A DNA stretch of 64,000 nucleotides from Nitrospirales bacterium (GCA_965223675.1 OZ245013.1:1569169-1633168); one strand, 5' to 3'. Counted from the first letter of the stretch, positions 11,926 through 60,557 are shown. The notes: generated from the sequence alone by a model not told the origin. Made by a program: numbers and translations.

Positions 11926-11926
11926 C

Positions 11927-12997: not shown

Positions 12998-13069
12998 TTC
13001 ACTACGACACTCAACACAAACACTCTCGGTCAGACCGAACCATAAACACCATACATGGTTCCGCGCAGT

Positions 13070-14176
13070 TTACGAACCCATCGAAATACGTCCTAACATT
13101 GTTAACAGCTGCTCTTCACCCTTTTGAATGTTGGTCTCTAAACGAATGGCCCACCAATCTTTATCTTCCTTGAGGAGCGGAGTAAGTTTCACACTGTCTT
13201 TTTCAGTCGTCACAATAATTTCAGCCTTCCGTCGTTGAGCCTGGCGCCTTATCGCGTCAAGACTATCATCCGAGTAGGAAAAATGATCAGGAAACGCAAA
13301 CGTCTCTAAAATGGTCACCCCCATTTGTTGAACGGTTTGCCGAAAGGACAGAGCATTCCCGATTCCACTCACAATGACGGCATGTTTCCCAGAAAACCAA
13401 TCTCCAGATTGAACCTGACCCGTTCTCACATTTATCACTTCACATGGAAAAAATTGGACATGAATGGGAGAAATGCTCTTTCCAAGCCCAGATTGCAAGG
13501 TATTCAGCACGGCGGACGGCCTTGATGCCTGGTCCATTCGAGTCAAAAGAATAGCCGTGGCTCGTCGTGCCTCACAGATCGGCTCTCTCAGCCGGCCGAC
13601 CGGCAACATCCCGGCTAATCCTCGTTCATCTAAAGCATCAACAAGCAGAAGATTGCAATCGCGATGGAGTCGTAAATGTTGAAATCCATCGTCTAACACG
13701 AAACAGTCTACATCGACTTGATTGAGTACCCATAGGCCTAATTCGTAACGTTTTTTCCCCACAGCTATCACAACCTCTGGACAGCGTTGTGCCATTAAAA
13801 ATGGTTCATCACCACCTTCAGCAGGACTCGTGAGGCACTTCTGGCCATCTGAGACAAGCAGAAATTCACTGGCATGTTTTCGACGGTATCCTCTGCTCAA
13901 TATCGCAACACGTTTCCCACGACCCCGTAACCAATTGGCTACCCACATGACAATCGGTGTCTTTCCAGTTCCTCCTACCGTAAGATTTCCAACACTGATG
14001 ACCGGACGTGGAAGACGATGCTGTGTTAACCACCCGTGTTCATACAATTGGTTTCGGCCTCGAATGAGTAAACCATACGGAACGGTGAGAGCATTGAGCA
14101 GGAATGGGCAATAACTCTGACACCAGGAAAGATCTTTATCTGTTGAAGATTCAACGTCTGTCACCATGATAGACAA
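13070..14176 (-). CDS. lpxK: tetraacyldisaccharide 4'-kinase
   Basis: P-loop VGNLTVGGTGKTP and DDGFQH motif. Confidence 0.9.
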   Translation of the reverse strand: MSIMVTDVESSTDKDLSWCQSYCPFLLNALTVPYGLLIRGRNQLYEHGWLTQHRLPRPVISVGNLTVGGTGKTPIVMWVANWLRGRGKRVAILSRGYRRKHASEFLLVSDGQKCLTSPAEGGDEPFLMAQRCPEVVIAVGKKRYELGLWVLNQVDVDCFVLDDGFQHLRLHRDCNLLLVDALDERGLAGMLPVGRLREPICEARRATAILLTRMDQASRPSAVLNTLQSGLGKSISPIHVQFFPCEVINVRTGQVQSGDWFSGKHAVIVSGIGNALSFRQTVQQMGVTILETFAFPDHFSYSDDSLDAIRRQAQRRKAEIIVTTEKDSVKLTPLLKEDKDWWAIRLETNIQKGEEQLLTMLGRISMGS

Positions 14177-14196
14177 CTCATATCACCAAGAACTGG

Positions 14197-33160: not shown

Positions 33161-33755
33161 AGCTTTGAGATTGACTCTGGCGATGACGCTGCATGATCGC
33201 TTGCGACCGTATAATATGGCGAATGATGGCTTCACGGTCATCGTCCGCAATCTTAGTGAACTCTACAGCTATCTCAAATTTAGGGACATCGCTTGGCGTT
33301 TTCGATGGGGAGGTACGCAGTACTTTTCCAATAGCTTGTATGGGAATGAAAGGACGAAGAATCAATCGCAGCACAAGCACAGCATCAACCGGAAATTCTT
33401 TTTCCGAGGCAAACCGAATACCCGAACCACTCAAATTCACATTCATAAACTGCGGGATCGATTCTGACAAACGCTTATCTTTTGCGAGTGTCTTTAAGAC
33501 AGATGTGAGCAGCCAATCAATACGAGTCAACATTTGAAGCATTAATGGATCTTTAATGGTGAGGTCTTTTTCATCAACCATGGCCCGAACCAGATCAGGA
33601 GATATGGCTAATTCATCCCATTGCCATGGAGACATTTGCGTCCCATCAGCACCGACAGTTTCACACGAAAGCGCAAGGGGAACGTCTACAGAGACAGACG
33701 CATGAACTGATCCGCGAACGTCTTTTCGACGCTCATCACTATCAAGAACGCTCAT
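33147..33755 (-). CDS. PilZ-domain (c-di-GMP receptor-like) protein
   Basis: RRKDVR (RxxxR) at aa 9-14 and NLSGSG (D/NxSxxG) at aa 107-112, separated by an unusually long (about 90 aa) partly helical segment. Confidence 0.75.
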   Translation of the reverse strand: MSVLDSDERRKDVRGSVHASVSVDVPLALSCETVGADGTQMSPWQWDELAISPDLVRAMVDEKDLTIKDPLMLQMLTRIDWLLTSVLKTLAKDKRLSESIPQFMNVNLSGSGIRFASEKEFPVDAVLVLRLILRPFIPIQAIGKVLRTSPSKTPSDVPKFEIAVEFTKIADDDREAIIRHIIRSQAIMQRHRQSQSQSCVLG

Positions 33756-37041: not shown

Positions 37042-37869
37042 TTACTGCAGTAACGCCAACGCTTGCTGAGGCAAGGTGTTGGCCTGAGCTAAAATCGATG
37101 TCCCGGCTTGCACCAAGATTTGATTTCGCACGAATTGTGACGTTTCAAAAGCAATATCCGCGTCACGAATCCGTGATTCTGCAGCGGTGATATTTTCGTT
37201 TGCGACTTGCAAATTCTGAACGGCAGCATCGATACGATTCTGCAATGAACCTATTGTGGCTCGAGCACTCGCCACCGCGCTAATTGCACTATCAATATTG
37301 GACAGCGCACTCAAAGCTCCGGAAGACGTCGATACATTGACAGAGCTCAAACTAAGATCACTCGTCGTCAAATCATTAAGGGCGATCGACAAGGTATCAT
37401 TCGCGGAACTTCTGAATCCGATTTGAATCGAAAGACTGTTATTGTCCGCACCACTGAGTAATTTAACGTTGTTAAACTCAGTCACCGAGGCAATACGATC
37501 AATTTCAGATCGCAATGCAACGAATTCTTGATCTAGGTAAGACCGTTCCGTCGCACCAAGAATTCCACTTGCTGATTGTTCAGCCAACTCTCGAAGTCGG
37601 CCTAATAGATTACCAATATTGGCAGCACCACCGTCAGCGATCTGCAACAAGCTGATACCATCGTTGGCGTTTCGAGCGGCCTGATTAATACTTCTGATTT
37701 GAGCACGAAGAGTTTCCGAAATACCCAGACCGGCAGCGTCGTCAGCCGCTCGAGTAATTCGAAGTCCTGAGGAAAGACGCGCGACTGATCCATTCAACGA
37801 ATTTGTATTAACTTCAAGATTCCGTTGAGCGTTAAGCGACGCGATGTTGGTGTTTACGACAAGTGCCAT
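37042..37869 (-). CDS. fliC: flagellin (short, 275 aa)
   Basis: MALVVNTNIASLNAQRNL...LSSGLRI N-terminus and a LSLLQ-type C-terminus (QQALALLQ). AGGAGG SD. Ser/Thr-rich central segment. Confidence 0.93.
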   Translation of the reverse strand: MALVVNTNIASLNAQRNLEVNTNSLNGSVARLSSGLRITRAADDAAGLGISETLRAQIRSINQAARNANDGISLLQIADGGAANIGNLLGRLRELAEQSASGILGATERSYLDQEFVALRSEIDRIASVTEFNNVKLLSGADNNSLSIQIGFRSSANDTLSIALNDLTTSDLSLSSVNVSTSSGALSALSNIDSAISAVASARATIGSLQNRIDAAVQNLQVANENITAAESRIRDADIAFETSQFVRNQILVQAGTSILAQANTLPQQALALLQ

Positions 37870-38121: not shown

Positions 38122-38655
38122 CTACCCACGCGATGGCAGGCGCGGAACAATTTCAAATTCCAAGAGGTCTGCGACTTCGACTATATCAACTCGTTCTCGC
38201 GCCGCAATGACCCTTTGCAGCCAATTCACCATTGAATCAGGCGGGGGTTGAGAGGTTCCAACTGTCCTGGCGAGTTCAGCCCATTCGACATAATCAGCCA
38301 GCCTCCCAAACCAATCGTCGAGTTGACGCAGACGTTTTTCTCCACGACGAAAGGCACGAGCCAAATTTTCTGCGTCTTCCTTAAGCGCTGCACCAAATTC
38401 TTGAGCACTCGGTGCCCCACTTTCGACGATCGACTGAAGCGGTCGACTGGTTGCGACTACATTGCCCATTTGACCAGCTTCCTGGGAAAGAATTGAAGGC
38501 ACGAGATCACGATCCGTAAAACATCGCTGGCCTACCTTCAAGTTGGTGACTAAACAGCCTCTTGCATGAGCCGTATCACTCAAGCGCGCAATCACTTCTT
38601 CGAGTTTCACGGTGTCCTCCATCTCCCAAGTCTCTTCATCGAGTTGAACTTGCAT
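38122..38655 (-). CDS. hypothetical protein (177 aa) between the GT9-like gene and fliC
   Basis: ATG preceded by AGGAGG at 7 nt. It overlaps the stop of the upstream gene by 20 nt. No recognisable motif. Confidence 0.65.
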   Translation of the reverse strand: MQVQLDEETWEMEDTVKLEEVIARLSDTAHARGCLVTNLKVGQRCFTDRDLVPSILSQEAGQMGNVVATSRPLQSIVESGAPSAQEFGAALKEDAENLARAFRRGEKRLRQLDDWFGRLADYVEWAELARTVGTSQPPPDSMVNWLQRVIAARERVDIVEVADLLEFEIVPRLPSRG

Positions 38656-40294
38656 ATTCGACCCTCCTTGTTGGTATATGATCGATTTTCAAATTCCGCA
38701 CCACATTCAATGCGCGACGTTTCCACATTGCGTATGCTTTCGCATGCTCACAGGCCATACCATAAAGATCGGATTGACTCAGGTTGTACGTATCTCGAAA
38801 ACAAGCAGAGGTAATCGGACTAAAAGCTGGCGACATACGTCCCAGTACTCTTGCCTCATGAGCTTTTTGATTTAAACGCTCATGGCAAGCTTTTATCCGG
38901 TGGACTGACAAGGAAGCCTGGGAGGTTAAGTCAACGAACTCGTTTACTGTATCACACAGAAACGTTAACAGAGGATCAAGTTTTGCGAACGTTTCTATCA
39001 CGTGATCCAGATCTGGAGGTTTTCCGTGTGGTCCTGACATGCGACTGATCTGCCCAGTACAGTCTTCATACCAAAACTTCCTCCAGAATTCTCCGTACCA
39101 TTGCTGAAGTGGGTCTTCTACTCCTACACGAAGGCGAAACGTCCCAAGCTGGTCTTCATCAACTCCCGCCTCATACACACGCGTTCCTATCGAAAAACCT
39201 GGCAACTCACCTTTCCCCAAGACATGCAGACACACATCTGCCACTAAGTGTGGCAGGAGTCGTTCCTTGCAGCTCTGGTGAGAACACACTTGGTCAAATC
39301 CACATGGTCCACATTCAATGTCTGGCTGGATGCACCAATGGTTTTTTCCGTAGGGACCTGTCTCTCGAAAATCAACGTGACCGACAGATACATTGACAAC
39401 CGGCAGGTTTACGCCAACGGCCAAGTGCATAGGCCCCGTATCATTCGTGAGCATTAACTGACATTGAGACAACAGTCCTAACAGCTGCTCGAGGTTTGTT
39501 TTTCCAATGGCATTACAAAGCGGACCAACCCCATCAGCATGTTTATAGCTCTGCACCGCTTCCTGTACTGCCTGTTGTTCCTTTTTTGTCCCAATCAACA
39601 CAAATCCAACGTTAAGCCGTTGACTAAGCAAGGCCATCGTCTGACCAAAATAGGTTGGGCGCCATGCTTTCATCACATCACTTGCCCCGACTTGCACCGC
39701 TAACCACGCGGAGGTCTCGCCAGACGACGCGAGTAAATTTCTTGCCCATTCCAGATCGATCGTATGTTGTTTTAACTCAATCGGTGCAAATGGACCCAGA
39801 CGACTCCCTCCCAAAGCATAGACATCAGCAAGATTAAAGCGGTTAAACTTTCGATAGGTATGCATATCGAGAAAATACGTCATCCAGGGGTTTTTGACGA
39901 TGACACTTCCATCCGGCGCGGTCGTGAGTCCTCGGATATCATGAGCTCCCACGTAACCCGTCAAATAGGCACTTCGTCGATTAAACGTGAGATTGATCAC
40001 CCGATCGTATCCATTCTCAACAAGAGGTTTCGCCCACTTTGCAAGATCCTGATACAACGCAACGACGTCTCTAGCCCGCACTCGTGTTTCATCCATGAGT
40101 AGTTGAAAGTCATGAGCCAGAACATGACGAATTCCAGGAAGAAGTTTCGCTATCTCAGAAAATTCCTTATCGACAATCAGGTCGATCTCCACACCTGGCC
40201 ATTCGTATTCCAATCGCTTCAACAATGGCGTCATCTGAACTAAATCACCCATGCGAGTGATATTTAATATGAGGACTTGTTTACTCATTAACAC
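38636..40294 (-). CDS. GT9-like glycosyltransferase with a ~200-aa C-terminal extension
   Basis: VLILNITRMGDLVQMTPLL N-terminus, TNDTGPMHLAVG and a CGPCGFDQVCSHQSC cluster (GT9 hallmarks), followed by a helical extension with no recognisable motif. Confidence 0.8.
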   Translation of the reverse strand: MLMSKQVLILNITRMGDLVQMTPLLKRLEYEWPGVEIDLIVDKEFSEIAKLLPGIRHVLAHDFQLLMDETRVRARDVVALYQDLAKWAKPLVENGYDRVINLTFNRRSAYLTGYVGAHDIRGLTTAPDGSVIVKNPWMTYFLDMHTYRKFNRFNLADVYALGGSRLGPFAPIELKQHTIDLEWARNLLASSGETSAWLAVQVGASDVMKAWRPTYFGQTMALLSQRLNVGFVLIGTKKEQQAVQEAVQSYKHADGVGPLCNAIGKTNLEQLLGLLSQCQLMLTNDTGPMHLAVGVNLPVVNVSVGHVDFRETGPYGKNHWCIQPDIECGPCGFDQVCSHQSCKERLLPHLVADVCLHVLGKGELPGFSIGTRVYEAGVDEDQLGTFRLRVGVEDPLQQWYGEFWRKFWYEDCTGQISRMSGPHGKPPDLDHVIETFAKLDPLLTFLCDTVNEFVDLTSQASLSVHRIKACHERLNQKAHEARVLGRMSPAFSPITSACFRDTYNLSQSDLYGMACEHAKAYAMWKRRALNVVRNLKIDHIPTRRVEYASSTR

Positions 40295-40444
40295 ACCCGA
40301 AAATCGGTAGACGGAAAACGAGAAACGATATAAGAAAATATTGAACGCTTTGGTAGATTGAAATATTTATTTGAGGTGGTCGATTCCTCAAACACGAAGT
40401 TGAGTCTTGAATCAATTCCTCGTCTAGCGTCTTACGTTTCACGA

Positions 40445-42265
40445 TCACACAAAATCCCTAGTTTCTTGCCGATATTCATCCATCATCAAGATAAGCAACT
40501 CATTCCGGCTTAAGACAGCTGTAGGACCCTTAGCCCGAATCTTGGCAGCCACATCTTCCAATTCCACTCGTTCAGTATCTCGGAACGGCTGCAAGAGAGG
40601 TAACAACTCAGGTGATTCCTGACTTTTTTTGACTAACGAAGATGCATTACGTTCACCGCGCAACACAGCACCAACTCGATCTGGCTGATGAAGTCCTATC
40701 TCACTCAATAAGGTCTTCATACGATGAACATAGGTATGATGACGTAATACGTGTTGTCTTGAGGCCTCAGCCATATCATGACGTGCGTCTGAATCTTTCA
40801 CGTACCGATCGACCGTCGAAGTCAGATCTTCGGGGCTATTGATCACACCCATCATTGACTGATCGAAATGCTCGAAGAGAAGCTCTCTCGTATCTGAGAT
40901 TTGAAAAGCTCCGCATGCCGCCAGTTCGAACATTCTTGGATTAAGACTATCACCATGAGGATCAAACCCTTCACCGGTATACGAATGAAGATTGATATTC
41001 ACTTTGGTGCAATTAAAGATCTTGACACTGGTTTCTGCATCAATCCTAGCGCCCTTTCGCTGCAAAACTTGTCCCAACGGACCGGGATCTTCCCATTCAT
41101 TTCCCCAAAGCTTGAATGACCAACTATGATTCAGGAGCGATTGAAGTAAAAGCCGGCGATTGGGATATCCTGCACCGAGGAAAGAAACATCGGCACCGAA
41201 TTCTTGCTGTTCTTCAAACGTACAATTCAGGGGTCGATGAATCTCTGGGTTCGCCGCTAACGGCAAATAGCTTACATGCTTGGCTCCTGCATGGGATAAT
41301 GCATCGATGCAAGCTCGTTGCTGCATGACAAACCAAAAGTCGTATCCCGTTGCCACCTGCTGCCAGTAGGTGAGATGTCTGAAATTTTCCACAAACCACA
41401 TGGCTGTCAGCACTTTCTTTTTGCGTAGTTGTTCCAATACGGGCATGGCTAAAGGCGCCTGTGCCATCGCCAGCACAAGATCAGGTGGATCGTCTGCGAT
41501 ATGTGCAAGGCTGACGATCCCAAGTGTTTCGCCAAAACGGCTCTGCATCGTCAGTCGTAACTGGGGATCACGAAGATTTTCCAAACTTTTATATCCTGGA
41601 TGATGGATGGAATGATCAATCCAACTGACTCGATGCCCAAGATGCTCCAAGGCTGGAACAACGTGGAGTGCTACCGATAAAGAGCCTCCATAGATTGGTC
41701 CCACCACTGCAACATGGAGACGCCCCCCTTGCTTTTGAGACACTCGCTCACGTAGACAGTCTTGAAATTCTCTGATGTACTGTTCGTGAATAGCGGCCGA
41801 GGGGTCGTGGCGAATCATATGAATCCGGGAAGATGACTGGCTGACATAATCGGCGACTTCTTTGCATTCTCCCCAGAGCCATTGAATATGTTCGCCCCAT
41901 CCATCAAGAACCCTCACTGAAAGTGCATCAACTAATTCTCGTAAATCTGGGACTAACACCAAGATTGATTGCGTATCTGGAATCTTCTTTTTCAACGCTT
42001 CAATATGATAGAGGAGTCCTACTCCAATAATCAGAATCGCTTCTCCTGCCTGAGGCTCGTGCATCTCCCTTTCTGCCCAGGTATACGCCTCTTTCATAGG
42101 ATCATAGGCACTATGAAGCCATTGCTCTTGAACACGTGCAGTCGGCATTCCATTCTTTGCATCGAGAATCGTGAAGGCTCCACCCTCTTCATCAAAAAGC
42201 TTTTCCGCAAGACCGGGATTTTGAAGACGAATAACGCGAAGATTTTCCTGAAGTATGCTCATCAA
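40445..42265 (-). CDS. Maf-N-terminal-like / CgeB-like glycosyltransferase family protein (606 aa)
   Basis: The N-terminus (LQENLRVIRLQNPGLAEKL...LHSAYDPMKEA...ILIIGVGLLYHIE) resembles motility-accessory-factor N-termini. The C-terminal half (NPRMFELAACGAFQISD...) resembles the CgeB/Glyco_trans_1_2 family. Confidence 0.65.
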   Translation of the reverse strand: MMSILQENLRVIRLQNPGLAEKLFDEEGGAFTILDAKNGMPTARVQEQWLHSAYDPMKEAYTWAEREMHEPQAGEAILIIGVGLLYHIEALKKKIPDTQSILVLVPDLRELVDALSVRVLDGWGEHIQWLWGECKEVADYVSQSSSRIHMIRHDPSAAIHEQYIREFQDCLRERVSQKQGGRLHVAVVGPIYGGSLSVALHVVPALEHLGHRVSWIDHSIHHPGYKSLENLRDPQLRLTMQSRFGETLGIVSLAHIADDPPDLVLAMAQAPLAMPVLEQLRKKKVLTAMWFVENFRHLTYWQQVATGYDFWFVMQQRACIDALSHAGAKHVSYLPLAANPEIHRPLNCTFEEQQEFGADVSFLGAGYPNRRLLLQSLLNHSWSFKLWGNEWEDPGPLGQVLQRKGARIDAETSVKIFNCTKVNINLHSYTGEGFDPHGDSLNPRMFELAACGAFQISDTRELLFEHFDQSMMGVINSPEDLTSTVDRYVKDSDARHDMAEASRQHVLRHHTYVHRMKTLLSEIGLHQPDRVGAVLRGERNASSLVKKSQESPELLPLLQPFRDTERVELEDVAAKIRAKGPTAVLSRNELLILMMDEYRQETRDFV

Positions 42266-42278
42266 ATACTATTCCTCT

Positions 42279-43370
42279 TCATACACCTAACTCATGATGG
42301 ATCTGATGACTGAGTTCACGAAATTTCCTCCCAACTGCATTGTATTTGCTAGACAAGGAAGCATTCTTGAGAGAACGATGAGCACTGTTCTCATAGCGGG
42401 AGGCAACATATTCATAGACTGGTGCCAGCAGGAAAAGAATTTCTCCTTGCCGATCACTACGTTGGCGAAGAACACTTTGTGAATCAATGGTTTTTAGCGT
42501 ATCGAGAATACTCTGTGCACGATGAACTCCAGTGTGTTTCTTCTCCACCTCCAAACGTCCGCGAGAAGCGATCTCTTCCCGCTCCTCATGATGTGCATCA
42601 TAATATTGTGCGATGTGAAGGACTTCTTCGATATTCCCTTTCGCATACATTACACAATGGGTCTTGTCCTGAAATAGATCCTCTAATCCGTTCCCAACCC
42701 GCTCCATCAACAACATGCCTCCGCAAGCCATGGCTTCAAACGTACGAAAATTCACATCATTGTCTGCACATTGATTCAGTATCATTTTGGATTGCATGAA
42801 CACGGAGAGATAGTCACCGGTTCCAACATAGAGAGGATAAGCCTCTTGTAGAGTTTTTAGAAATGCATACCGCACCGGATTGAGAGTCGGGTTGATGCTG
42901 CCTACAAAACTCAAATCATACGTTCTAGAATGACAATCATCTAAGGATGGAATAGTCGGAGGAAATAAGGGAAGCCACTGTGCAATCTGCCTGGACTGAT
43001 CACGTACATAACCCGAGACAAAATCTCGTTGTGCGACAAATATCACATCGAATATTGCAGCATAGGCTTGATGCCATCGATGATGAATATGCGAATCGAT
43101 CGCATACCAACCAACAGGAATATGTAGTCGCTCCAACCCTAAAAATAGAGGATGAGTACTTTCATCGGTCAACAACACAAAATCAGGATTCCATCCTGTG
43201 GGTAAGTGCTGCCATAGTCGATCAATCGAAATGGGATATTCAGGCATTTTGATATCACCGGTATTATCTGTTGGACAGGTCAAAACATCATGACCTAATT
43301 CCTGAAACCCCGGTTTCAACGCTGGTAACCCAAGGAGTAAAATCTTCATCAACTTCTCATTCTCAAACAC
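42279..43370 (-). CDS. CgeB-like glycosyltransferase family protein (paralog A)
   Basis: FRTFEAMACGGMLLMERV...EEREEIASRGRLEVEKKHTGVHRA, a CgeB/Glyco_trans_1_2-type C-terminus. It aligns along its full length with the next gene. Confidence 0.7.
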   Translation of the reverse strand: MFENEKLMKILLLGLPALKPGFQELGHDVLTCPTDNTGDIKMPEYPISIDRLWQHLPTGWNPDFVLLTDESTHPLFLGLERLHIPVGWYAIDSHIHHRWHQAYAAIFDVIFVAQRDFVSGYVRDQSRQIAQWLPLFPPTIPSLDDCHSRTYDLSFVGSINPTLNPVRYAFLKTLQEAYPLYVGTGDYLSVFMQSKMILNQCADNDVNFRTFEAMACGGMLLMERVGNGLEDLFQDKTHCVMYAKGNIEEVLHIAQYYDAHHEEREEIASRGRLEVEKKHTGVHRAQSILDTLKTIDSQSVLRQRSDRQGEILFLLAPVYEYVASRYENSAHRSLKNASLSSKYNAVGRKFRELSHQIHHELGV

Positions 43371-44443
43371 GGCGCTTCGCCTAAGTTATGAAGAACCTTC
43401 GATCGAGCCTCCTGGAATGCCGCTGACGTACGCACACATTCGTGAAACTGTGAAGGCAAATCCTTATAACGACGACTTGTTACCTCATACACACTGGCAG
43501 CATGCTCGTAGACACGATCTAACTGACGATTGATTTCAATTAGCTTGGATTGTCTACTCTTGACCAACACGTGAGCGTTCGCAGCCCGAACGATATCGAC
43601 GATTGTCCGAACTCGATGCATAGTCGTGTGACATGTGAGAACTCGCTCTCTTCCTTCATGAGCGATCTCTTCACGCTCCTGCTCATGCCTAATATAGTGC
43701 AGAGCTAATTCAACGATCTGATCGATATTGTCTCTTTCATACATCACGAGGTGCGTACGATCCTGGAACAGATCCTCGAAGCCATTTCCTACTCTTTCTG
43801 TCAGCAAAAGACTCCCACAGGCGAGCGCTTCAAACACTCGAAAATTCACGTCATTGGCGGCACATTCATTGAAGACCACCCGTGAGCGATTAAACACGCT
43901 CACATATTCGCCAGTCGTCGTATACATCGGAATTCGTTCCATCACTGCATTGAGTAAGCGACTCCGCTTAGGTTTCCATCTTTCATCAATAACGCCGACA
44001 AAACTCAGATCATATATTTTCGGTAATGGAAAATAGCGATCTCGCTCAGGATTACAAAAGAGCGGCAACCATCTCACAACCTGCCGAGAAGAGTCTTGTT
44101 CATAATCAGGGAGATAATCTCTTTGAGCGACAAACACAAAATCGAACACGGATGTGTAGGATTTATGCCAATCCAAATGGAGATGGGCATCGATGGTGTA
44201 CCATGCCAGCGGGACATCGAGACGCTCTAATCCCAAAAACATGGGTTCCGTACTCTCATCCATCAACATAACAAGATCGGGATTCCAATCACTCGGCAAC
44301 GCTTGAAGAACTTTATTGATAGAGACAGGAAATTCATCGATCCAAATATCTCCACTTTGATCGGTCGTACACGTCAATACGTCATGTCCACATTGGAGAA
44401 AAGCTCCCTTCAGTACAGGAAACCCTAATAAAAGTACGTTCAT
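43349..44443 (-). CDS. CgeB-like glycosyltransferase family protein (paralog B)
   Basis: Collinear with 42279-43370 (for example GHDVLTC.TD..GDI, WNPD, DES..P.FLGLERL, VFVAQRD, WLPLF, FRVFEALACGSLLL). Confidence 0.7.
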   Translation of the reverse strand: MNVLLLGFPVLKGAFLQCGHDVLTCTTDQSGDIWIDEFPVSINKVLQALPSDWNPDLVMLMDESTEPMFLGLERLDVPLAWYTIDAHLHLDWHKSYTSVFDFVFVAQRDYLPDYEQDSSRQVVRWLPLFCNPERDRYFPLPKIYDLSFVGVIDERWKPKRSRLLNAVMERIPMYTTTGEYVSVFNRSRVVFNECAANDVNFRVFEALACGSLLLTERVGNGFEDLFQDRTHLVMYERDNIDQIVELALHYIRHEQEREEIAHEGRERVLTCHTTMHRVRTIVDIVRAANAHVLVKSRQSKLIEINRQLDRVYEHAASVYEVTSRRYKDLPSQFHECVRTSAAFQEARSKVLHNLGEAPCLRMRS

Positions 44444-45801
44444 ATCAACCCCTGCGAGGCGTAAGAAAATTCAGATTCATTCATCAGTTCTACAACTGAG
44501 TCCCAATCAACATTCTCACGACCATGAAGCTTCTCCCATAATTGTTCTCGATAACGACCAGCCCCCATATTGGGGTTACCGTACTGGACGAAATGAGCAC
44601 CGTAATGATCCTGTTGACTCCTCCAGAGGCTCCATCCTTCAGGAATGACCGAACATGTTTCCGTCAACAAAAGCTCCACACTTTCTCTGACCGGCCAATA
44701 CTCCGGCCTAACCCCCTCATTGGCATTTTTCACTTTGCCATTCCCACGTTGAGTTTCATTCCCTTCCTTACCCTTCACCCCTAACTCCTCACGCCTCCCC
44801 CCTACTTCCGCATGTTTCACGTTTAACGTTTCACGTTTCACGCTCCGCTCGGCCTGCCACACCCAATGGCCTTTGCCGTAGGGTCCTGTTTCATGGACGC
44901 GCGCACGAGAAAAATACAAGCCTTGTGTTTTTGCGCCGCATGCCACACCCAAATGGAGAGGTCCCGTATCCGAACCAATAACCCAATCACAATAAGATAA
45001 GAGATGAGCCAATTGGGGAAATGTGGTTTGTCCACACATATTCCAAATCCGCCCCATAAGCAATGATGGGATCCGATCTAAAAGTGAATACGTTAACTCC
45101 CGTTCTCCTGTCCCTCCAATCAGGACGACACGACCTTGAGGGGATGTTGAAAGAAAGGTAGAAATCCATTGTTCCCACGTATGAAGTGGGATTCGTCGAT
45201 CAGCGTCACCCGATCCGATAACAATGCCCACTCGAATGCCATCAGATGTCATAAAATCATCAAGCTCACGGGGCCAATTCATTTCAGACAATTGCAACAT
45301 TGCAACATGACTTGGAGGTTTGACCCCACAAAGGCCACAAAACGCGTCAGCAAGATGCACCCGATTATTTCCTCGATGTGCACCCACAAGATTCAAATAC
45401 TTCACCCAACTGGGAAGCTCTGACGAAAGAGGTCCATAACAACCAGGACCACTCACGTTAGTCGCCATAAGATGTGCGGCGAAGATCGCTCGAGAATGAT
45501 TATTCAAGTTATAGGCCATCTCATACGTGTCTGCCTGATATCTTTCCATGCACTTCGCCGCTCGAGACAACACGTTTTCAGCTTTAAATGACCAACTTTT
45601 CGCCATCTCTCCCCATTCAGTTCCATCCCAAGGAAAGACTCGTTCCACTCCTGGGAAAAGTTTGCCTACTGGAACCAAAGGAGCAGCACACAAAAGGTCA
45701 ATCCGATTATCTGGGGGTAAAGATCTCAGAGCAGTCACTGCCGGTAGGGTTTGAACAAGATCCCCCAACCTAGCCAATTGGATTACAAGACGATTCGACA
45801 T
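44440..45801 (-). CDS. GT9-like glycosyltransferase with the Cys cluster replaced by a low-complexity insert
   Basis: LVIQLARLGDLVQTLPAV N-terminus and GSDTGPLHLGVA motif. After GPYGKGHWVW the usual CxxC...C cluster is replaced by RSVKRETLNVKHAEVGGRREELGVKGKEGNETQRGNGKVKNANEG. Confidence 0.75.
   Translation of the reverse strand: MSNRLVIQLARLGDLVQTLPAVTALRSLPPDNRIDLLCAAPLVPVGKLFPGVERVFPWDGTEWGEMAKSWSFKAENVLSRAAKCMERYQADTYEMAYNLNNHSRAIFAAHLMATNVSGPGCYGPLSSELPSWVKYLNLVGAHRGNNRVHLADAFCGLCGVKPPSHVAMLQLSEMNWPRELDDFMTSDGIRVGIVIGSGDADRRIPLHTWEQWISTFLSTSPQGRVVLIGGTGERELTYSLLDRIPSLLMGRIWNMCGQTTFPQLAHLLSYCDWVIGSDTGPLHLGVACGAKTQGLYFSRARVHETGPYGKGHWVWQAERSVKRETLNVKHAEVGGRREELGVKGKEGNETQRGNGKVKNANEGVRPEYWPVRESVELLLTETCSVIPEGWSLWRSQQDHYGAHFVQYGNPNMGAGRYREQLWEKLHGRENVDWDSVVELMNESEFSYASQGLI
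44814..44841 (-). repeat. 4 tandem heptanucleotide units inside the GT9-like CDS
   Basis: The plus strand reads gtttcac gtttaac gtttcac gtttcac (coding strand GTGAAAC x3 plus GTTAAAC), followed on the coding strand by a purine-rich tract. Confidence 0.9.
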
Positions 45802-45974: not shown

Positions 45975-47015
45975 TCAGCAGGGCTGACAACTCGATAAAA
46001 AATAGGAATTTGTCCGATCCCAAAGCATGTAAAAGTTCATAGACATTTCCGCGCCGCCGATGGTGGGGTATAAGTCCTGTATCTCCGAAACAGCCTTTTT
46101 GACACCCTCGACATTGTAGTCATCAACGAGAATGATCCCATTTTCTTGAAGTTTCGGAACAATGAGTTTAAGACTCGACAAGGTTCCTTGGTATTGATCG
46201 GTATCAACCAATGCAAACGATACATGTTGCTCGTTTGACAATACCCTCGGAAGCGTATCCTGTATGAGTCCCTTCACTAAAGTCGTATGCTGAGCCAAAC
46301 CATGCTCTTGAACATAATGCGTGACTCTCTCTAATGATGTCTCCATAAACGTCCCGGCTTGAAAAACCGTTTCCTGATCAGAGGTTGTTGGGTTGGGCAT
46401 GCCGGAAAAGGTATCAAAAGCATAGACTTGCCTAACATCGCCCCATTCCCTCAAGAGCAGACCCATGAACACCGTCGTACCACCTTTAAATGATCCACAC
46501 TCTAAAATACATCCGTCGTAGGTGGAAAGTAGAGCTTGAGCAACAAGCCCAAGTTTTCTCATGTTCAAACAGGTTTCCAATCGGCTGACTTTCGAAAAGG
46601 CATTTTTTACGCCAGAACGTAACCTTCTTATCAAGAGGACCGGACAAGTTAAACGATTGTCACCAGAAAAATAATCACTCAATTGTTGAAGAAGTAAAGA
46701 TTCTTCAGCTTGTGAATTGGCCCCAACGAGTAGGAGATCGTAATCGGAGCTACTAAGATCTTGAATCGATTGACTTGGATGAAAGATATCATGAGGACGA
46801 CCTGCATAATATCCCTTGATTGATAATCCAAAATCTTGAATGGCTTCGGCGTTCTCGAATACTGAATCATCGACACCAATAGCGGCAACACGCAGTGTAT
46901 CCTGTCGAGAAAAAGTCGATAAGGCGGTACCATAGAGATCATAGAGAATGAGGTCTAACGACTCATTTAAATATCTCTGAAGAACAGGCTCTATTGAGTC
47001 TTCTATTGATATCAT
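45975..47015 (-). CDS. TylF/MycF-family SAM-dependent O-methyltransferase with an N-terminal extension
   Basis: ECGSFKGGTTVFMG, FDTFSGMP and VDTDQYQGT...ILVDDY motifs of the macrocin-O-methyltransferase family. About 130 additional N-terminal residues. Confidence 0.75.
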   Translation of the reverse strand: MISIEDSIEPVLQRYLNESLDLILYDLYGTALSTFSRQDTLRVAAIGVDDSVFENAEAIQDFGLSIKGYYAGRPHDIFHPSQSIQDLSSSDYDLLLVGANSQAEESLLLQQLSDYFSGDNRLTCPVLLIRRLRSGVKNAFSKVSRLETCLNMRKLGLVAQALLSTYDGCILECGSFKGGTTVFMGLLLREWGDVRQVYAFDTFSGMPNPTTSDQETVFQAGTFMETSLERVTHYVQEHGLAQHTTLVKGLIQDTLPRVLSNEQHVSFALVDTDQYQGTLSSLKLIVPKLQENGIILVDDYNVEGVKKAVSEIQDLYPTIGGAEMSMNFYMLWDRTNSYFLSSCQPC

Positions 47016-47025
47016 CGGCTTTACG

Positions 47026-50000
47026 CTAAGAATTTGCGACAGCCTTGAGATCTACTTCGCCATTCTCAATGGCACGCTCCAAATCTTGAAGTCCCTCATA
47101 GTCTGGGCTGAGAAGTTGTAGAGTTTGTAAATGTGATTGGGCCTCGTAAATATTTCCTCGACGAACCTGAACCCCCGCCAATGCATATCGCATGTCACAA
47201 TTCGCTGGATTCCGCTCTACAAAGTTCGTGAGGCATGTCACTAACGCATTCCAATCAGCTAATTCAGTACCGACTTGAATTAACCAGTTCATGATTTCCA
47301 CATCATCAGGATTTTGATTCCAGGCTATCTTAAGCGTGTTCCACGCTTGTTTCGTTTTCCCTAAACCTACGTACGCCATTCCTAATCCCATTTGGGATTT
47401 TGTGGAATTGTCACCATCTTGAATAGCACGCTGAAATGCTGTAACGGCATCGACAAACCTTTGACATTGGATATGACAAACACCTTGAATATTCCATAAA
47501 TCTCCGTCATCGTTTTTATAGACAAATGCCTTGTCGAGGTGGCTCTGTGCACAGTGTATGTCACCCCGACTCAATGCCAATTTTGCGAGTACTTTCCGCA
47601 CATCAAGATCCTCTCTTGATTGAAGAACACGTTGAAAGAAGCTTTCACTTTCTCGGCCCAGGTTCATACTCGCACAGGTCTCACCTAACCATTTCAGAAT
47701 TTCAGAGTCGTCCGGCCACTCCCTCTCCCCTCTCAAGAGTTTATCAATTTCGTCTTTTAACCCTGAACTGGCTTCTGCTCCACTCTTTTTCCACCGAAAA
47801 AGAAGACGTTGAAGATCAGCAACGTTCTTGCTTTCCTGCGAATCATTAGTTGTCTGAAGAAGCCTGTAGATATATCTCCCCACCCCCCCCTCACTTGACG
47901 TTTCTAATTTAAGCCCATCTTCAAACGCCATAAAATCTTCATCGACGCAAATCGTGTTCCCCCATCGCTTCAGAAACAGTTCAACATTGTGGCTTTCATG
48001 ATTTTTTCTTCCCGGGCTTTGACTCTCTAAGTGATACATCCAACTTTTAGGCTGATAGACAATCTTCCCTCCTCGTTCTCCAATCCTTAGACAGAGATCG
48101 ATATCTTCAAATCCATTCTTGTAGTGTTCGTCATATCCCTCAGCGCTTTCAAACCAAGGACGCTTCACCAGCATGCAAGCGGCCGTCACCGCCTGAAACT
48201 CTCTTCGACGATTTCCAATTCTTCCATCATTGGGTAACCCACGATAGATGTGATAGGGCGTTAAGAGATTCCGACTAAATACCACCCCTGCATGCTGTAG
48301 AGAGCCATCAGCAAACAGAAGTTTGCTGCCCACAATCGCAATGTCATTGCTGGATTCAGCTTCTGCTACCAAGCACTTTAGCCATCCTTCCTGCGGAATT
48401 GTGTCATTATTCAGAAAGACCAGGTGCTTTCCTCGAGCCGCCTGTGCACCCTGATTGCAGCCCCTGGCAAACCCAAAATTTTCTTCATTCGAGATAATCT
48501 GCACATCCCCCTTGAGGGTTTTTAAGAATTCGTGCGTTCCATCGGTAGAATGATTATCCACGACAATCACTTCATAACTCACACTATCTGTAACCTTCGC
48601 CAGTTGAATAAGACATTGCTGGGTCAATTCTACCTTATTAAAAACTGGAATAATGATTGAACAGTCATATGGAAAGGAGTCAGGATTCTCTTTTTGATTA
48701 ATTACATCTCCAGCCTTTTGTGTAGCATTCGGATGACGCCTATACGTTCGATATTTTTCATGAATAATCTTCTGAGTTTTTAGAAAATCGTCAGGTCGCT
48801 GACTGGTCGTCGATGTGCCATCTGTGCGCCAGGTAAACTCAGCTGTCACAGACTTTATGTGATGCAAAGAAAAACACCGAGAGAGACGAATGATTAAGTC
48901 CCAATCTTCATGGGTGGAAAGTGTCTCATCGAATCCACCTACACGATCCACACACGACTTTGCATGCATGAGACATAATATCGGGATGTAGTTCTGTCGG
49001 AGAATCGCCTCTTTATTGAAATCCACTGAGTAGGGCACATCCCGGTCTTTCCTAATATACTGGCCGTTTTCTTTTATCTGCAGAACTCGATGCGCATCAG
49101 TATACGCCACTTGACAATCTGAGTTTTCTAAGCAGGATACAAGGGTCTCGATATGGTTCTCATAAAATCGATCGTCATCATCAAGATACGCGATATATTT
49201 CCCCTTAGAGAGTTTTATGCCCATATTTCGTGCATGAGACCGTTCTTTGTTTGCACCAAGACGAAGATATACTATCTTTTCTGAACCGGAGAGTGATGAG
49301 AGTTGCGTTTCCACATCACACCCACCATCATTAATCACGATCACTTCTACAGATTCATAGGTCTGGGCAAGAACACTTTTCACGGCTTCGACGAGGCGTT
49401 CTGGACGGTTAAACGTGGGAATAATCACCGAAACCATCGGCTGGTCTTTAGCGGAAACTTCGTCAGGTGATAGATCCGGAGACGCCTGTTCCATAAAAGA
49501 ATACTCCTTCTCCCCAAGACTGTTTTGAAGAGGATTCAAAGAATTGTCCTGATCGTTATCACGAAAATGTTTCATTTCTGACCCTTCCTGATTCAAAAGC
49601 TCCTGATTAGACATCCCTCCTGTGTGACGTTGGGTCAATTGACGAATCTTACCTGCCTCCTCAGACTTGCCATTTCGGGCGAGACAGCTAGACAGTAGCC
49701 AGTATATTTCTTCGCATGTTGGATAATGTTGAACGATTCGGTCATAGACTCCATGAAGTCCTTCAATGTGATTGCACAGATCCAGGGCACTTGCAAGGCC
49801 TAACAGTTCACATTCTTGTTCGGGAATATCAATACCGCGACTATACTGGCTCTGACTATTTATTCGATAGACAAAATAATCTTTCCAAAAATTAATCTGT
49901 TCACACCGAGAAAGCTTCGATTGATGCGCGGCAGAAATTTTGGTCCATTCATCCGCACGTGTTTCAAACGGCGCCACGACAGATTTCGACTCCGCTCGAC

Positions 50001-50619
50001 CTCCTTCCCTTGATTCACCAAGTATATGATCGATGTAATGGAAGACTTTCCCATGTGACGTGATTCTTAACCAGAACTCATAGTCAATTCCATATGGCAA
50101 ATCTTCCCGAAATTCACCCATTTCATCTAACAATGACTTCGAGTAAAACATGGAGGGCTGAAAAAGACCGTGCCCATTAAACCACCGAGCGACAACTGAA
50201 TGTGTGATCGGATATTTAGGAATATGCAGTCGAAGGGCGTCACCATTCTCATTAATAAACAAACCTTTTCCATACAAAACATATGATTCAGATAGTGTTG
50301 CTGCCTTCGAAACAACCTGCTGAAACACTCCTGCGTTCGAATACCGATCATCGGCCCCGATCCAGCCAATGATGTCGCCGGTAGCCATACGAATAGCTTT
50401 ATTGAGTGCCTCTGCCTCTCCATGATCAGGCTCAGAGATCCATTTAAGATGAGAATATTTTTTGAGAACTTCCACTGTTCCGTCCGTTGAGGCACCATCG
50501 ACAATAATATGCTCAAAATCCTGGAAGCTCTGGGCGAGAACACTTTCAATACATTGTGGAAGAAAGTCTGCACAATTGAACGCCGGTGTCACGATAGAAA
50601 TCTTAGGATATGCACTCAT
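47026..50619 (-). CDS. 1197-aa multidomain protein: three GT2 glycosyltransferase domains plus C-terminal TPR repeats
   Basis: GT2 no. 1 at aa ~6-225 (ISIVTPAFN...IIVDGASTDGT). GT2 no. 2 at aa ~396-600 (VSVIIPTFN...VIVINDGG...LDDDD). GT2 no. 3 at aa ~653-870 (CSIIIPVFN...VIVVDNHSTDGT...NFGFARGCNQG). TPR-like helices at aa ~975-1180. Confidence 0.85.
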   Translation of the reverse strand: MSAYPKISIVTPAFNCADFLPQCIESVLAQSFQDFEHIIVDGASTDGTVEVLKKYSHLKWISEPDHGEAEALNKAIRMATGDIIGWIGADDRYSNAGVFQQVVSKAATLSESYVLYGKGLFINENGDALRLHIPKYPITHSVVARWFNGHGLFQPSMFYSKSLLDEMGEFREDLPYGIDYEFWLRITSHGKVFHYIDHILGESREGGRAESKSVVAPFETRADEWTKISAAHQSKLSRCEQINFWKDYFVYRINSQSQYSRGIDIPEQECELLGLASALDLCNHIEGLHGVYDRIVQHYPTCEEIYWLLSSCLARNGKSEEAGKIRQLTQRHTGGMSNQELLNQEGSEMKHFRDNDQDNSLNPLQNSLGEKEYSFMEQASPDLSPDEVSAKDQPMVSVIIPTFNRPERLVEAVKSVLAQTYESVEVIVINDGGCDVETQLSSLSGSEKIVYLRLGANKERSHARNMGIKLSKGKYIAYLDDDDRFYENHIETLVSCLENSDCQVAYTDAHRVLQIKENGQYIRKDRDVPYSVDFNKEAILRQNYIPILCLMHAKSCVDRVGGFDETLSTHEDWDLIIRLSRCFSLHHIKSVTAEFTWRTDGTSTTSQRPDDFLKTQKIIHEKYRTYRRHPNATQKAGDVINQKENPDSFPYDCSIIIPVFNKVELTQQCLIQLAKVTDSVSYEVIVVDNHSTDGTHEFLKTLKGDVQIISNEENFGFARGCNQGAQAARGKHLVFLNNDTIPQEGWLKCLVAEAESSNDIAIVGSKLLFADGSLQHAGVVFSRNLLTPYHIYRGLPNDGRIGNRRREFQAVTAACMLVKRPWFESAEGYDEHYKNGFEDIDLCLRIGERGGKIVYQPKSWMYHLESQSPGRKNHESHNVELFLKRWGNTICVDEDFMAFEDGLKLETSSEGGVGRYIYRLLQTTNDSQESKNVADLQRLLFRWKKSGAEASSGLKDEIDKLLRGEREWPDDSEILKWLGETCASMNLGRESESFFQRVLQSREDLDVRKVLAKLALSRGDIHCAQSHLDKAFVYKNDDGDLWNIQGVCHIQCQRFVDAVTAFQRAIQDGDNSTKSQMGLGMAYVGLGKTKQAWNTLKIAWNQNPDDVEIMNWLIQVGTELADWNALVTCLTNFVERNPANCDMRYALAGVQVRRGNIYEAQSHLQTLQLLSPDYEGLQDLERAIENGEVDLKAVANS
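47883..47890 (-). repeat. G8 homopolymer (coding strand) inside the triple-GT2-TPR gene
   Basis: Counted directly: plus strand c-a-CCCCCCCC-t. The coding strand GAG GGG GGG GTG GGG encodes EGGVG (aa ~909-913), between GT2 no. 3 and the TPR region. Confidence 0.95.
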
Positions 50620-58464: not shown

Positions 58465-59523
58465 CTAAAATGGACCGACAAAGCTTCGATCTGGAACATC
58501 GAGCGGGTGAGAAGAGTGCTCCAAATCGATTTCTGTTATCTCTTTTTTATTCATTAAAGACCGGACGACATTCATGATTTGGATTGCGCGTGGGTAATAA
58601 TGCTCCGTTAACGCATGAGAAGTCGGCGTAGGACAATCCGGCAACCCGATTCGCTTCGGAGAACATTTAAGCTCGAAAAATGCATGTTCCACGACCAGAG
58701 AAACAATCTCTGCCGAGACACCAAACGAGGTCCACCCAGTATCCGCCACCACGAGACGTCCGGTCTTACAGACTGATTTCACGATGAGCGAGTCATCTAA
58801 AGGACGCAGACTCCGAACATCCACAACTTCAGCCCCAATCCCATCTTCTGCCAGCATGTTTGCCGCTCTCATGGCTTCGAGTGTCATATAAGAAGTCGCC
58901 ACGATCGTCACATCAGAACCTTGTCTGAGCACTCGACTCGTCCCTAAAGGAACTCGATAGAGACCGTCTGGCACATGATCAATCGTGTCATGCAGCCAGC
59001 GATGTTCGAGAAACACCACAGGGTTAGGATCTTCGATACTCGCGATCAGTAATCCCTTAGCATCATAGGCCGTTGTCGGCATGACTACCTTGAGCCCTGG
59101 AATATGCGAAAACCAGGCTTGTAAGCTTTGGGAATGTTGAGGGCCCTGTCCCCACCCCCTTCCGATCATTAATCGGATAACTAAGGGAACACTGTGCTGG
59201 CCACCGAACATGTACTGCCAATTCGCCGCTTGATTCACCATTTGTTCTACAGCTAATAAAGCAAAATCCATACGTTGGTGAGTCATAACGGGCTTCATGC
59301 CCATTAACGCGGAACCAATAGCCACGCCGGTCATTGCATTTTCCGAGGTGGGCATATCCATAACTCGATTTTCACCATAATCTTCTTCTAACCCTCGCGT
59401 ACTCCCGAATATCCCTTTGGGATCCGGAACGCCCAACCCCATCACATACACAGCGGGGTCTTTTTCCAGGCAAAGATCCAAAGCTTCTCTGATGGCTTCA
59501 ACGTATGTTCGTTGTCGAGTCAT
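58465..59523 (-). CDS. TPP-dependent 2-oxoacid dehydrogenase E1 component, beta subunit-like
   Basis: MTRQRTYVEAIREAL...DVMGLGVPDP...MPTSENAMTGVAIG, typical of an E1-beta/transketolase pyrimidine-binding domain. The ATG at 59523 overlaps the alpha stop (ATGA). The track ORF start at 59667 is an artefact. Confidence 0.85.
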   Translation of the reverse strand: MTRQRTYVEAIREALDLCLEKDPAVYVMGLGVPDPKGIFGSTRGLEEDYGENRVMDMPTSENAMTGVAIGSALMGMKPVMTHQRMDFALLAVEQMVNQAANWQYMFGGQHSVPLVIRLMIGRGWGQGPQHSQSLQAWFSHIPGLKVVMPTTAYDAKGLLIASIEDPNPVVFLEHRWLHDTIDHVPDGLYRVPLGTSRVLRQGSDVTIVATSYMTLEAMRAANMLAEDGIGAEVVDVRSLRPLDDSLIVKSVCKTGRLVVADTGWTSFGVSAEIVSLVVEHAFFELKCSPKRIGLPDCPTPTSHALTEHYYPRAIQIMNVVRSLMNKKEITEIDLEHSSHPLDVPDRSFVGPF

Positions 59524-60557
59524 GCGGCTTTTTCTCTGGATGGTACGGAATGCACAGCATACACATGTTGAAATAACTGCTCCTTCGGTGGAAACTGACT
59601 TTTTTGGGCGTATCGTACGGCGGCCTCTATCTCCGACGAGAGACGTTCCACATGACCACGTTCCCAAGACGCATCAAACCCGCCTCGCTGAGACAAAACA
59701 TGTTTTGTCTTTTCGATTGGGCACCTTGTGTGCCATTCTTCAAACTCCGACAGCGTTCGATATCCTAAGTGATGATCAAAGTTTGGCCCGCAATGTTCTC
59801 GCCATCGATAGGTTTCAAATTCGAGAAATGTTGGGCCACCACTGTTCCGTGCTTTGTGTACCGCCTGTGAAGCTGATTCATAGACGGCACGCACATCATT
59901 GCCATCTAGTCGCTTACCCTCACATCCATGCGCTTCCGCAATGAGCATGACATCACGCGTATGAGGTTGCCGAACTGATAAAGGGGAATACACCGAATAC
60001 AAATTGTTTTCACAGACGAATATGATTGGCAGGTTTTTCAGCACGGCAAAGTTCACACTTTCGTGAAATGTCCCTTCTTCGGTAGCTCCTTCTCCAAAGT
60101 ACACGACGGTGACGATAGGCTGTCCTTTCAACAGAGCACCAAATGCCGCGCCGACAGCAATTGGAATTGAACTCGCGACGATTGGGGTCGCGCCTAAAAA
60201 TCCAGCGGACAGGTCAACCAAGTGCATCGACCCACCTTTTCCCTTGGCGCATCCGCTTTCCTTTCCATAAATCTCAGCGAGCATCCGACTGAGATCTCCC
60301 CCTTTGGCTAAATAATGTCCGTGAGAGCGATGACCGCTCAAGACCACATCATTTTTCCTTAATGTTGCGCTGACTCCAACCGGAATCGCTTCTTGCCCAA
60401 TACACAAATGTACCGGGCAACGCATCTCCTTGTCGGTATACAGGTCAGCAATTCGCTCTTCGACCATCCTGATTCGAAGCATTTCAAGATAAAGATATCG
60501 CAGCAGATCAGAAGAAAGAGATCGATCGATGCGTGTCATGTGATCAGTAGTTTTCAT
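59520..60557 (-). CDS. TPP-dependent 2-oxoacid dehydrogenase E1 component, alpha subunit-like
   Basis: The TPP-binding motif region (YFGEGATEEGTFHESVNFA...PIIFVCENNLY) matches the GDG-X-N pattern of E1-alpha. Confidence 0.85.
   Translation of the reverse strand: MKTTDHMTRIDRSLSSDLLRYLYLEMLRIRMVEERIADLYTDKEMRCPVHLCIGQEAIPVGVSATLRKNDVVLSGHRSHGHYLAKGGDLSRMLAEIYGKESGCAKGKGGSMHLVDLSAGFLGATPIVASSIPIAVGAAFGALLKGQPIVTVVYFGEGATEEGTFHESVNFAVLKNLPIIFVCENNLYSVYSPLSVRQPHTRDVMLIAEAHGCEGKRLDGNDVRAVYESASQAVHKARNSGGPTFLEFETYRWREHCGPNFDHHLGYRTLSEFEEWHTRCPIEKTKHVLSQRGGFDASWERGHVERLSSEIEAAVRYAQKSQFPPKEQLFQHVYAVHSVPSREKAA

Follow-up and report, generated by a model that had tools for sequence, protein, structure and literature searches.

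A minus-strand gene in a 64,000-nucleotide stretch of a Nitrospirales bacterium genome (GCA_965223675.1 OZ245013.1:1569169-1633168; the whole stretch is called the window below) encodes a protein of 1197 amino acids (aa) with three glycosyltransferase family 2 (GT2) domains and, at its C-terminal end, an array of tetratricopeptide repeats (TPR). Judged from its sequence, predicted structure and genomic setting, this protein is probably an enzyme that builds the flagellin glycan. The link to flagellin is strongly backed because both the synteny and the phyletic pattern point to it. That the TPR array itself binds flagellin, as suggested by analogy with characterised enzymes, has roughly even chances.

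Domain organisation and catalytic residues

The gene is a single uninterrupted open reading frame (ORF) with an ATG start. Its parts, in window coordinates, are listed here together with the residues found invariant in the alignments. pLDDT is the predicted local distance difference test score of the AlphaFold2 model.

47026..50619 (-): whole gene, GT2-A/GT2-B/GT2-C/TPR; the stop codon is 47026-47028
49915..50619 (-): GT2-A, accessory GT-A domain, residues 1–235; N15, D41, D90-D91 (GADD) and D179 (DYEFW) invariant
49621..49908 (-): helical, weakly TPR-like segment following GT2-A, residues 238–333
49447..49617 (-): disordered linker, residues 335–391; pLDDT < 50, length-variable, poorly conserved columns
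48739..49446 (-): GT2-B, core, residues 392–627; N404-R405, D431, D480-D483 (DDDD) and H570-E-D-W-D-L575 invariant
48676..48738 (-): short flexible linker, residues 628–648; pLDDT < 50 over 625–648
47920..48675 (-): GT2-C, core, residues 649–900; PF00535 and PF13641; N661, D688/N689, N714-G-F-A...C721-N-Q-G-A725, L736-N-N-D-T740, E838-D839-x-D841 and H863-L-E-S866 invariant
47029..47919 (-): beta-hairpin (903–920) and 16-helix TPR array (924–1196), from Pfam TPR matches and AlphaFold2; proposed acceptor-docking module; W968-P-x-D971, W977, G1046, Q1051, P1104-D1105 and R1136-N-P1138 of the array invariant in the full-length alignment
47883..47890 (-): run of eight G on the coding strand (G8), codons 910–913, at the GT2-C/TPR junction

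With each catalytic segment scanned on its own, PF00535 (gathering cut-off 23.3 bits) matched GT2-A with 95.5, GT2-B with 92.3 and GT2-C with 91.4 bits; GT2-C also matched PF13641 with 58 bits. The C-terminal 269 residues exceeded the Pfam thresholds of TPR_19 (51 bits), TPR_16 (39.6 bits) and TPR_14 (41.3 bits), with matches at residues ~1010–1115, and sub-threshold BTAD/TPR_8 matches were seen at residues 282–323. No GT-B or PF01973 match was obtained in the protein with Pfam. The fusion of three GT2 domains and a C-terminal TPR region, first described in a reading made from the DNA alone (the sequence-only reading), is borne out by these matches and by the AlphaFold2 model. The motifs named there were likewise located: xxPxFN as VTPAFN (residues 10–15), IIPTFN (399–404) and IIPVFN (656–661), DxD-type motifs as GADD (88–91), DDDD (480–483) and NNDT (737–740), and NFGFARGCNQG at residues 714–724 of GT2-C. 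The three domains are indeed dissimilar. Their pairwise global identity is 25–26%, so they stem from three distinct GT2 lineages rather than from a recent triplication.

One or more of the domains could have been degenerate, and this was checked by alignment of 18 full-length homologues (85% to 37% identity) and of a wider set of 47 sequences. The catalytic signatures of all three domains are invariant across the 18 homologues, down to 37% identity, and those of GT2-B and GT2-C in the 47-sequence set as well. Each domain keeps the nucleotide-binding aspartate and the DxD-type motif (D41 with D90-D91; D431 with D480-D483; D688 with N738-D739). An alanine or asparagine at the first DxD position, as in GT2-A and GT2-C, is common to many GT2 subfamilies. 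The putative base motifs, D179 (DYEFW), E571-D572 (HEDWDL) and E838-D839 (FEDxD), are also invariant and lie at the expected distance of ~90–100 residues past the DxD motif, the HEDWD of GT2-B being paired with EEDWD in the alignment with AvpGT. Pseudo-catalytic domains are ruled out by these invariant motifs, and all three domains are apparently active, inverting, metal-dependent GT-A enzymes. With three unrelated and apparently active domains, the earlier suggestion that they form three different linkages is plausible.

The AlphaFold2 model, calculated from the 47-sequence alignment, has a mean pLDDT of 79.8 and a predicted template modelling score (pTM) of 0.48. It contains three confident GT-A domains with the beta-alpha pattern at residues 1–235, 392–627 and 649–900 (pLDDT mostly 80–96; GT2-A 81–94), while the helices at 238–333 reach 42–74. 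The hairpin and the 16 helices (901–1196) continue from GT2-C at pLDDT > 90 and with no low-confidence break, and in the model GT2-C and the TPR array form one rigid unit. A hydropathy scan found no segment resembling a transmembrane (TM) helix in the protein (maximal 19-residue Kyte-Doolittle mean 1.26), by which membrane association is ruled out.

In Foldseek searches of the PDB, GT-A enzymes were matched at a probability of 1.00 (K4CP, WrtF, AvpGT, 6p61 and ppGalNAc-T2). The hits group into the tandem GT-A polymerases K4CP/PmHS2, the single GT2 enzymes WrtF and AvpGT, the polypeptide N-acetylgalactosamine (GalNAc) transferases, and LARGE1. The nearest solved sequence relatives of GT2-A are the K4CP A2 domain and WrtF; for GT2-B the best is 9jma (AvpGT), with E 4.6e-23 over the full domain length. 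The label of this entry, a PglI-type lipid-linked glucosyltransferase, could have been read as a hint at a lipid acceptor, but what the entry shows is AvpGT in a crystal with a nucleoside, and no conclusion on the acceptor is drawn from it. GT2-C matches the K4CP A1 domain and the polypeptide GalNAc-transferases in sequence and fold, and shows marginal similarity to GmaR (22ao, E 5e-4), for which no orthology is claimed. The TPR region found generic TPRs alone (engineered TPRs, PEX5, the OGT TPR, MamA) and no specific relative in the PDB. None of the NCBIfam models reached its cut-off for this protein; EpsD, TuaG, WcaA/E and PglI-like names were all sub-threshold and reflect generic GT2 similarity only. 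The description of GT2-C as rhamnosyltransferase-like did not hold: the TIGR01556 score of 54.4 bits falls short of the 200.55 bits required, and the MftF-like and EpsD models scored higher yet stayed below their own cut-offs.

A slip of −1 or +1 at the G8 run would give a 953- or 924-aa product without the TPR array. A role of this run as a phase-variation or contingency switch is unsupported: G/C runs of at least 8 are under-represented in the genome (38 against ~56 expected from base composition, one of them in the island described below), and no such tract is kept in the aligned homologue of 85% identity. Longer G/C homopolymers were noted elsewhere in the genome, at C1:2023995-2024011 (17 nt), 2060436-2060451 (16) and 2792430-2792441 (12), two of the three being < 37 kb apart.

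Linkage to a short flagellin and the flgL-fliC island

A large-database search returned > 1600 relatives, mostly from Nitrospira and other Nitrospirales and annotated merely as 'glycosyltransferase'. They range from 800 to 2100 aa and vary in their modules, which include extra GT2, methyltransferase, CgeB-like, GT-B, radical S-adenosylmethionine (SAM) and kinase domains. The compact form with three GT2 domains and a TPR array is common to six metagenomic relatives (55–85% identity). Whole-genome searches showed that the conserved core consists of GT2-B, GT2-C and the TPR array (residues ~390–1190), and that GT2-A behaves as a separate module. GT2-A is missing from the core homologues in three genomes mapped for comparison, G016, G020 and G025 (two other genera, another family), and is, as judged from these searches, a lineage-specific add-on module.

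The distribution of this core was followed in a class-wide sample of 201 genomes from 56 genera, with presence called at E ≤ 1e-100. The core was present in 70 genomes, from 10 genera. In all 64 cases in which core and flagellin lie on the same contig, the flagellin is downstream on the same strand at a distance of 5449–9172 bp (median 5550). Short flagellins (frame ~275–340 aa) occur in 68 of the 70 core-bearing genomes, and the core was found in none of the 35 genomes whose flagellins are all long (~410–655 aa). The two genomes without a short flagellin and the four with core and flagellin on separate contigs are fragmented assemblies. The association of core and short flagellin gave a Fisher p of 8e-41 with no phylogenetic correction, and there was no counter-example; a smaller set of 41 genomes had the same outcome. 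A contig scan with the single 1197-aa protein brought up just two loci, distant ones from Clostridia/Eubacteriales that have no flagellin in their neighbourhood, and was uninformative, and a distant member from outside Nitrospirota (P0120) lies on a contig too short for context.

The gene lies in a long co-directional run on the minus strand of the window and belongs to a ~36 kb island that encodes soluble sugar enzymes and stretches from flgK-flgL to fliC-fliD; the island thus occupies the classic flgL-fliC slot. The genes on the flagellin side, in window coordinates, are:

45975..47015 (-): TylF-type O-methyltransferase (PF05711, 81.9 bits), 10 bp downstream of the gene
44440-45801 (-): GT9b, GT9-like (Pfam)
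43349-44443, 42279-43370 and 40445-42265 (-): three CgeB-like (Glyco_trans_1_2) glycosyltransferases (Pfam)
38636-40294 (-): GT9a (Pfam)
38122-38655 (-): 177-aa protein (u177), family not recognised; end of the conserved block 38122..45801
37042..37869 (-): fliC, a 275-aa flagellin with D0/D1 only (PF00669, PF00700); proposed acceptor

The gene fliD follows downstream of fliC. The flagellin contains 35 serines and 15 threonines, and a flagellin alignment shows the Ser/Thr-rich centre to include an invariant S176-V-N-V-S-T-S182. In G016, G020 and G025 and in cultured N. moscoviensis (CP011801.1) the same block order and strand are kept, namely GT2-B/GT2-C/TPR, GT9b, CgeB-like, GT9a, a ~175-aa protein, fliC and fliD, with one to three CgeB-like copies. 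Nearest to fliC in all mapped genomes are GT9a and u177, and no neighbour of it is more constant than this pair. FlaG and FliS were found in the N. moscoviensis block only. The TylF-type gene is lineage-specific: it is missing from the maps of G016, G020 and G025, and an 80% identical copy is present in the same-genus genome G001. In N. moscoviensis (CP011801.1 locus 10001-14686) and ~15 relatives, a CgeB-like domain of ~350 aa is fused N-terminally to the triple GT2-TPR protein, which links the 1197-aa protein functionally to the separate CgeB-like genes of this island.

In contrast to the constant downstream block, the upstream sugar-nucleotide genes differ between the mapped genomes. In the window they extend toward position 64000 and encode epimerase/dehydratases, a cytidylyltransferase-PfkB fusion, an E1 alpha/beta pair of thiamine pyrophosphate enzymes, a single GT2, methyltransferases, a radical-SAM enzyme, a GLF-like flavoenzyme and a zinc-dependent alcohol dehydrogenase. 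Past the right edge of the window follow genes of further soluble sugar enzymes (SIS, GHMP kinase, C-methyltransferase, NUDIX and DAO), then the GGDEF response regulator, flgL and flgK. The ORFs of E1 beta (58465-59667, TTG start) and E1 alpha (59520-60557), both on the minus strand of the window, overlap by 148 nt, and the true start of E1 beta is probably further downstream than listed. The response-regulator/GGDEF diguanylate cyclase between flgL and the island (C1:1642261-1646376) has counterparts of ~62% identity in G016 and G020, and a PilZ protein is encoded just beyond fliD (window 33147-33755). Together these two genes suggest that cyclic di-GMP exerts control in the vicinity of the filament genes.

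None of the 23 island ORFs resembles a membrane protein in the hydropathy scan, and neither Pfam nor hydropathy revealed a flippase, polymerase, ABC exporter or initiating phosphoglycosyltransferase within the ~36 kb. A set of soluble enzymes with no export or initiating genes fits cytoplasmic protein glycosylation and not an envelope polysaccharide pathway. Besides the 1197-aa gene, at least six further glycosyltransferase genes are present. The proposal that the protein processively assembles a trisaccharide is not upheld: given these additional transferases and the position of GT2-A outside the core, a larger glycan is probable, and consecutive action of the three domains is not required.

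The slot of the 1197-aa gene is itself variable. G001, with a flagellin of 98.9% identity, carries at this position an 814-aa protein of the order GT2-TPR-GT2 and one of 1446 aa with the order GT-B/GT2 (A-like)/GT-B/TPR (C2:2849000-2868500, positions 422-7213). This locus also has a GDP-mannose 4,6-dehydratase, while the TylF, GT9b, CgeB-like, GT9a and u177 flanks are kept at 62–80% identity, the partner block from GT9b to u177 in the usual order and strand. These replacement genes indicate that the catalytic parts are swapped and that a TPR array stays at the C-terminus. The slot is a hot-spot of recombination by which the glycan is diversified.

Proposed role and alternative readings

According to our model, the protein would act in the cytoplasm as a soluble glycosyltransferase with several catalytic domains, and would belong to an island for flagellin glycosylation. 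The GT2-C/TPR unit may dock on the unfolded or chaperoned short flagellin before flagellar type III export or, alternatively, on a partner bound to flagellin. The island enzymes would make the nucleotide-activated sugars, and each GT2 domain would pass on a different one of them, either to Ser/Thr of the central flagellin segment or to the growing O-glycan. The tethered GT2-B and GT2-A domains would build a hetero-oligosaccharide jointly with the GT9 and CgeB-like enzymes encoded next to the gene. GT2-A, carried on its 57-residue disordered linker, may add a strain-variable sugar, with the adjacent TylF methyltransferase joining in this lineage-specific decoration. GT9a, GT9b, the CgeB-like transferases and the TylF methyltransferase would complete and decorate the glycan.

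Several points weigh against this assignment. No paper was found on flagellin glycosylation in Nitrospira or any Nitrospirota. GT2 enzymes acting on undecaprenyl-diphosphate-linked acceptors are soluble too, and the absence of TM segments is compatible with a lipid-linked acceptor. With its pTM of 0.48, the AlphaFold2 model does not fix where GT2-A and GT2-B lie with respect to the TPR array. Shared ancestry inflates the phyletic statistics, and the core occurs in only 10 of the 56 genera. The TPR of the G001 replacement is just 40% identical despite flagellins that are 98.9% identical, which is neutral to slightly awkward. Finally GT9a and u177, being closest to fliC, could initiate the glycan, the 1197-aa protein then serving as a chain extender.

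This last point leads to the alternative that survives best, which we consider unlikely, though less so than those below: the protein acts in flagellin glycosylation with a TPR array that is a scaffold for other transferases or a regulator and does not bind flagellin, and GT9a with its 177-aa partner initiates. It draws on the position of this pair nearest to fliC in all mapped genomes and on a precedent in which Maf-2 binds flagellin via GlfM, a small adaptor encoded in cis (bioRxiv 10.1101/2023.12.03.569772) and a possible analogue of u177. By this analogy GT9a and the 177-aa protein could be an initiating flagellin transferase with its adaptor. Furthermore, the TPR of GmaR makes intramolecular and regulatory contacts (PMC9638930), and the TPR arrays are 30–40% identical between lineages whose flagellins are 72–99% identical. 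Opposed to this are FlmG and Maf-1, in which the TPR is the flagellin-binding element. The survival of a C-terminal TPR through the exchange of catalytic modules is as expected for an acceptor-side role; a scaffold would fit too.

A more far-reaching version of the preferred flagellin assignment would be a plug-and-play line, in which the TPR dock for the short flagellin is constant and cassettes (GT2, GT-B, methyltransferase, CgeB-like) are swapped by recombination between strains, yielding strain-specific glycan coats on nearly identical flagellins that replace the D2/D3 domains, with GT2-B/GT2-C possibly acting as a disaccharide co-polymerase of the K4CP/LARGE1 kind. As a whole we regard this as doubtful. 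In the class-wide sample the core occurred with short flagellins only, a hint that a glycan coat may make up for the outer domains that these flagellins lack.

It is very unlikely that GT2-B/GT2-C form a bifunctional co-polymerase of the K4CP, heparosan synthase or LARGE1 type that makes a repeating disaccharide on flagellin or on a primer glycan. These enzymes (K4CP, 2z86/2z87; PmHS2, 8vh7; LARGE1, 7ui6) are polysaccharide co-polymerases which, like the present protein, carry tandem GT-A domains in one chain and, unlike it, have no TPR. They are its best fold matches in Foldseek (E 7e-21 over ~580 aligned columns, 5e-19 and 2e-11, respectively), K4CP is the top or near-top sequence match for all three GT2 domains, and the GT2-B/GT2-C pair is an invariant unit with a short linker. 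However, the relative orientation of their domains is not reproduced (root mean square deviation 18–24 Å) and identity is 14–18%, so that the matches reflect two generic GT-A domains in series; the single-domain GT2 enzymes WrtF and AvpGT match each domain about equally well. The many additional transferase genes better fit a defined hetero-oligosaccharide.

The weakest alternative, a non-flagellar glycoconjugate (lipopolysaccharide (LPS) O-antigen or core, exopolysaccharide, or another glycoprotein) beside a fliC gene that is adjacent for historical reasons, can appeal to nearest NCBIfam/PDB names that belong to polysaccharide enzymes, all below cut-off, to GT9 neighbours resembling LPS heptosyltransferases and to lipid-linked intermediates being common substrates of soluble GT2 enzymes, and is nonetheless highly improbable in view of an island that sits in the flgL-fliC slot with none of the initiating, flippase, polymerase and export genes, and of a core that is invariably flagellin-linked on shared contigs and does not occur in genomes with no flagellin or with long flagellins only.

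Relation to characterised systems and significance

TPR domains that bind the substrate protein, as the sequence-only reading had noted for characterised flagellin glycosyltransferases, are indeed on record. In FlmG and Maf-1 the TPR attaches to flagellin, and glycosylation depends on it (PMC7591256; bioRxiv 10.1101/2023.12.03.569772), and flagellin binding by the TPR has been proposed for GmaR, a GT2-TPR flagellin N-acetylglucosamine (GlcNAc) transferase (PMC9638930). FlmG of Caulobacter and Maf-1 of Shewanella are similar to the 1197-aa protein in their modular build of TPR and catalytic parts, in their cytoplasmic action before export and in being encoded in flagellar/glycan loci. In contrast, the TPR of FlmG is at the N-terminus and its catalytic domain is of the GT-B type, and Maf-1 has a MAF_flag10/DUF115 domain; neither of these catalytic domain types occurs here. 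Each has a single catalytic domain and transfers nonulosonic acids, as opposed to the three GT2 domains of the present protein.

GmaR, the O-GlcNAc transferase/anti-repressor of Listeria monocytogenes, is likewise soluble and cytoplasmic, has a GT2 domain followed by TPRs, and acts on a short (~287 aa) flagellin. It differs in having one catalytic domain where there are three here, and its C-terminal anti-repressor domain is absent from the 1197-aa protein (PMC9638930). The latter resembles the TPR-docked flagellin O-glycosyltransferases in layout and flagellin linkage, and by sequence comparison it stands outside the FlmG, Maf and GmaR families.

Large soluble multi-domain GT2 proteins encoded between flgL and fliC are also found in Pseudomonas (Fgt1/Fgt2; VioT/OrfN, 1173 aa; PA1091/FgtA). 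PA1091/FgtA is a fused GT2 flagellin enzyme that combines the GT2 with a second catalytic activity (PMC11833859), and the Pseudomonas island enzymes build short O-linked hetero-oligosaccharides on Ser/Thr of flagellin (PMC3927599, PMC11833859). The Pseudomonas flagellins are longer, and no triple GT2 with a TPR is described there (PMC3927599, PMC11833859), a comparison made by descriptions only.

The true homologues are the proteins of N. moscoviensis (1561 aa) and Ca. N. inopinata (1679 aa), which are 37–43% identical, share the GT2-B/GT2-C/TPR core and are encoded in the same place upstream of GT9-CgeB-GT9-175aa-flagellin. These giants add modules (an N-terminal CgeB-like domain, a methyltransferase, more GT2), in comparison with which the 1197-aa protein is compact.

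The principle is not new: soluble flagellin glycosyltransferases that dock through a TPR are already known, and so are flgL-fliC islands with fused GT2 enzymes. The family itself is uncharacterised, and it extends the principles of FlmG, Maf-1, GmaR and the Pseudomonas islands and overturns none of them. Flagellin glycosylation has been studied almost solely in pathogens and a few model bacteria, with nothing for the nitrite-oxidising Nitrospira, which are key to the nitrogen cycle and to wastewater treatment. In this family as many as six catalytic modules share a single TPR tail, in strict coupling to short flagellins, and it is a natural system in which to ask how protein O-glycosylation keeps the docking of the acceptor apart from the specificity for the donor. 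Soluble modular enzymes of this kind could be useful in glyco-engineering, and as the same block is present in cultured N. moscoviensis, the hypothesis is directly testable.

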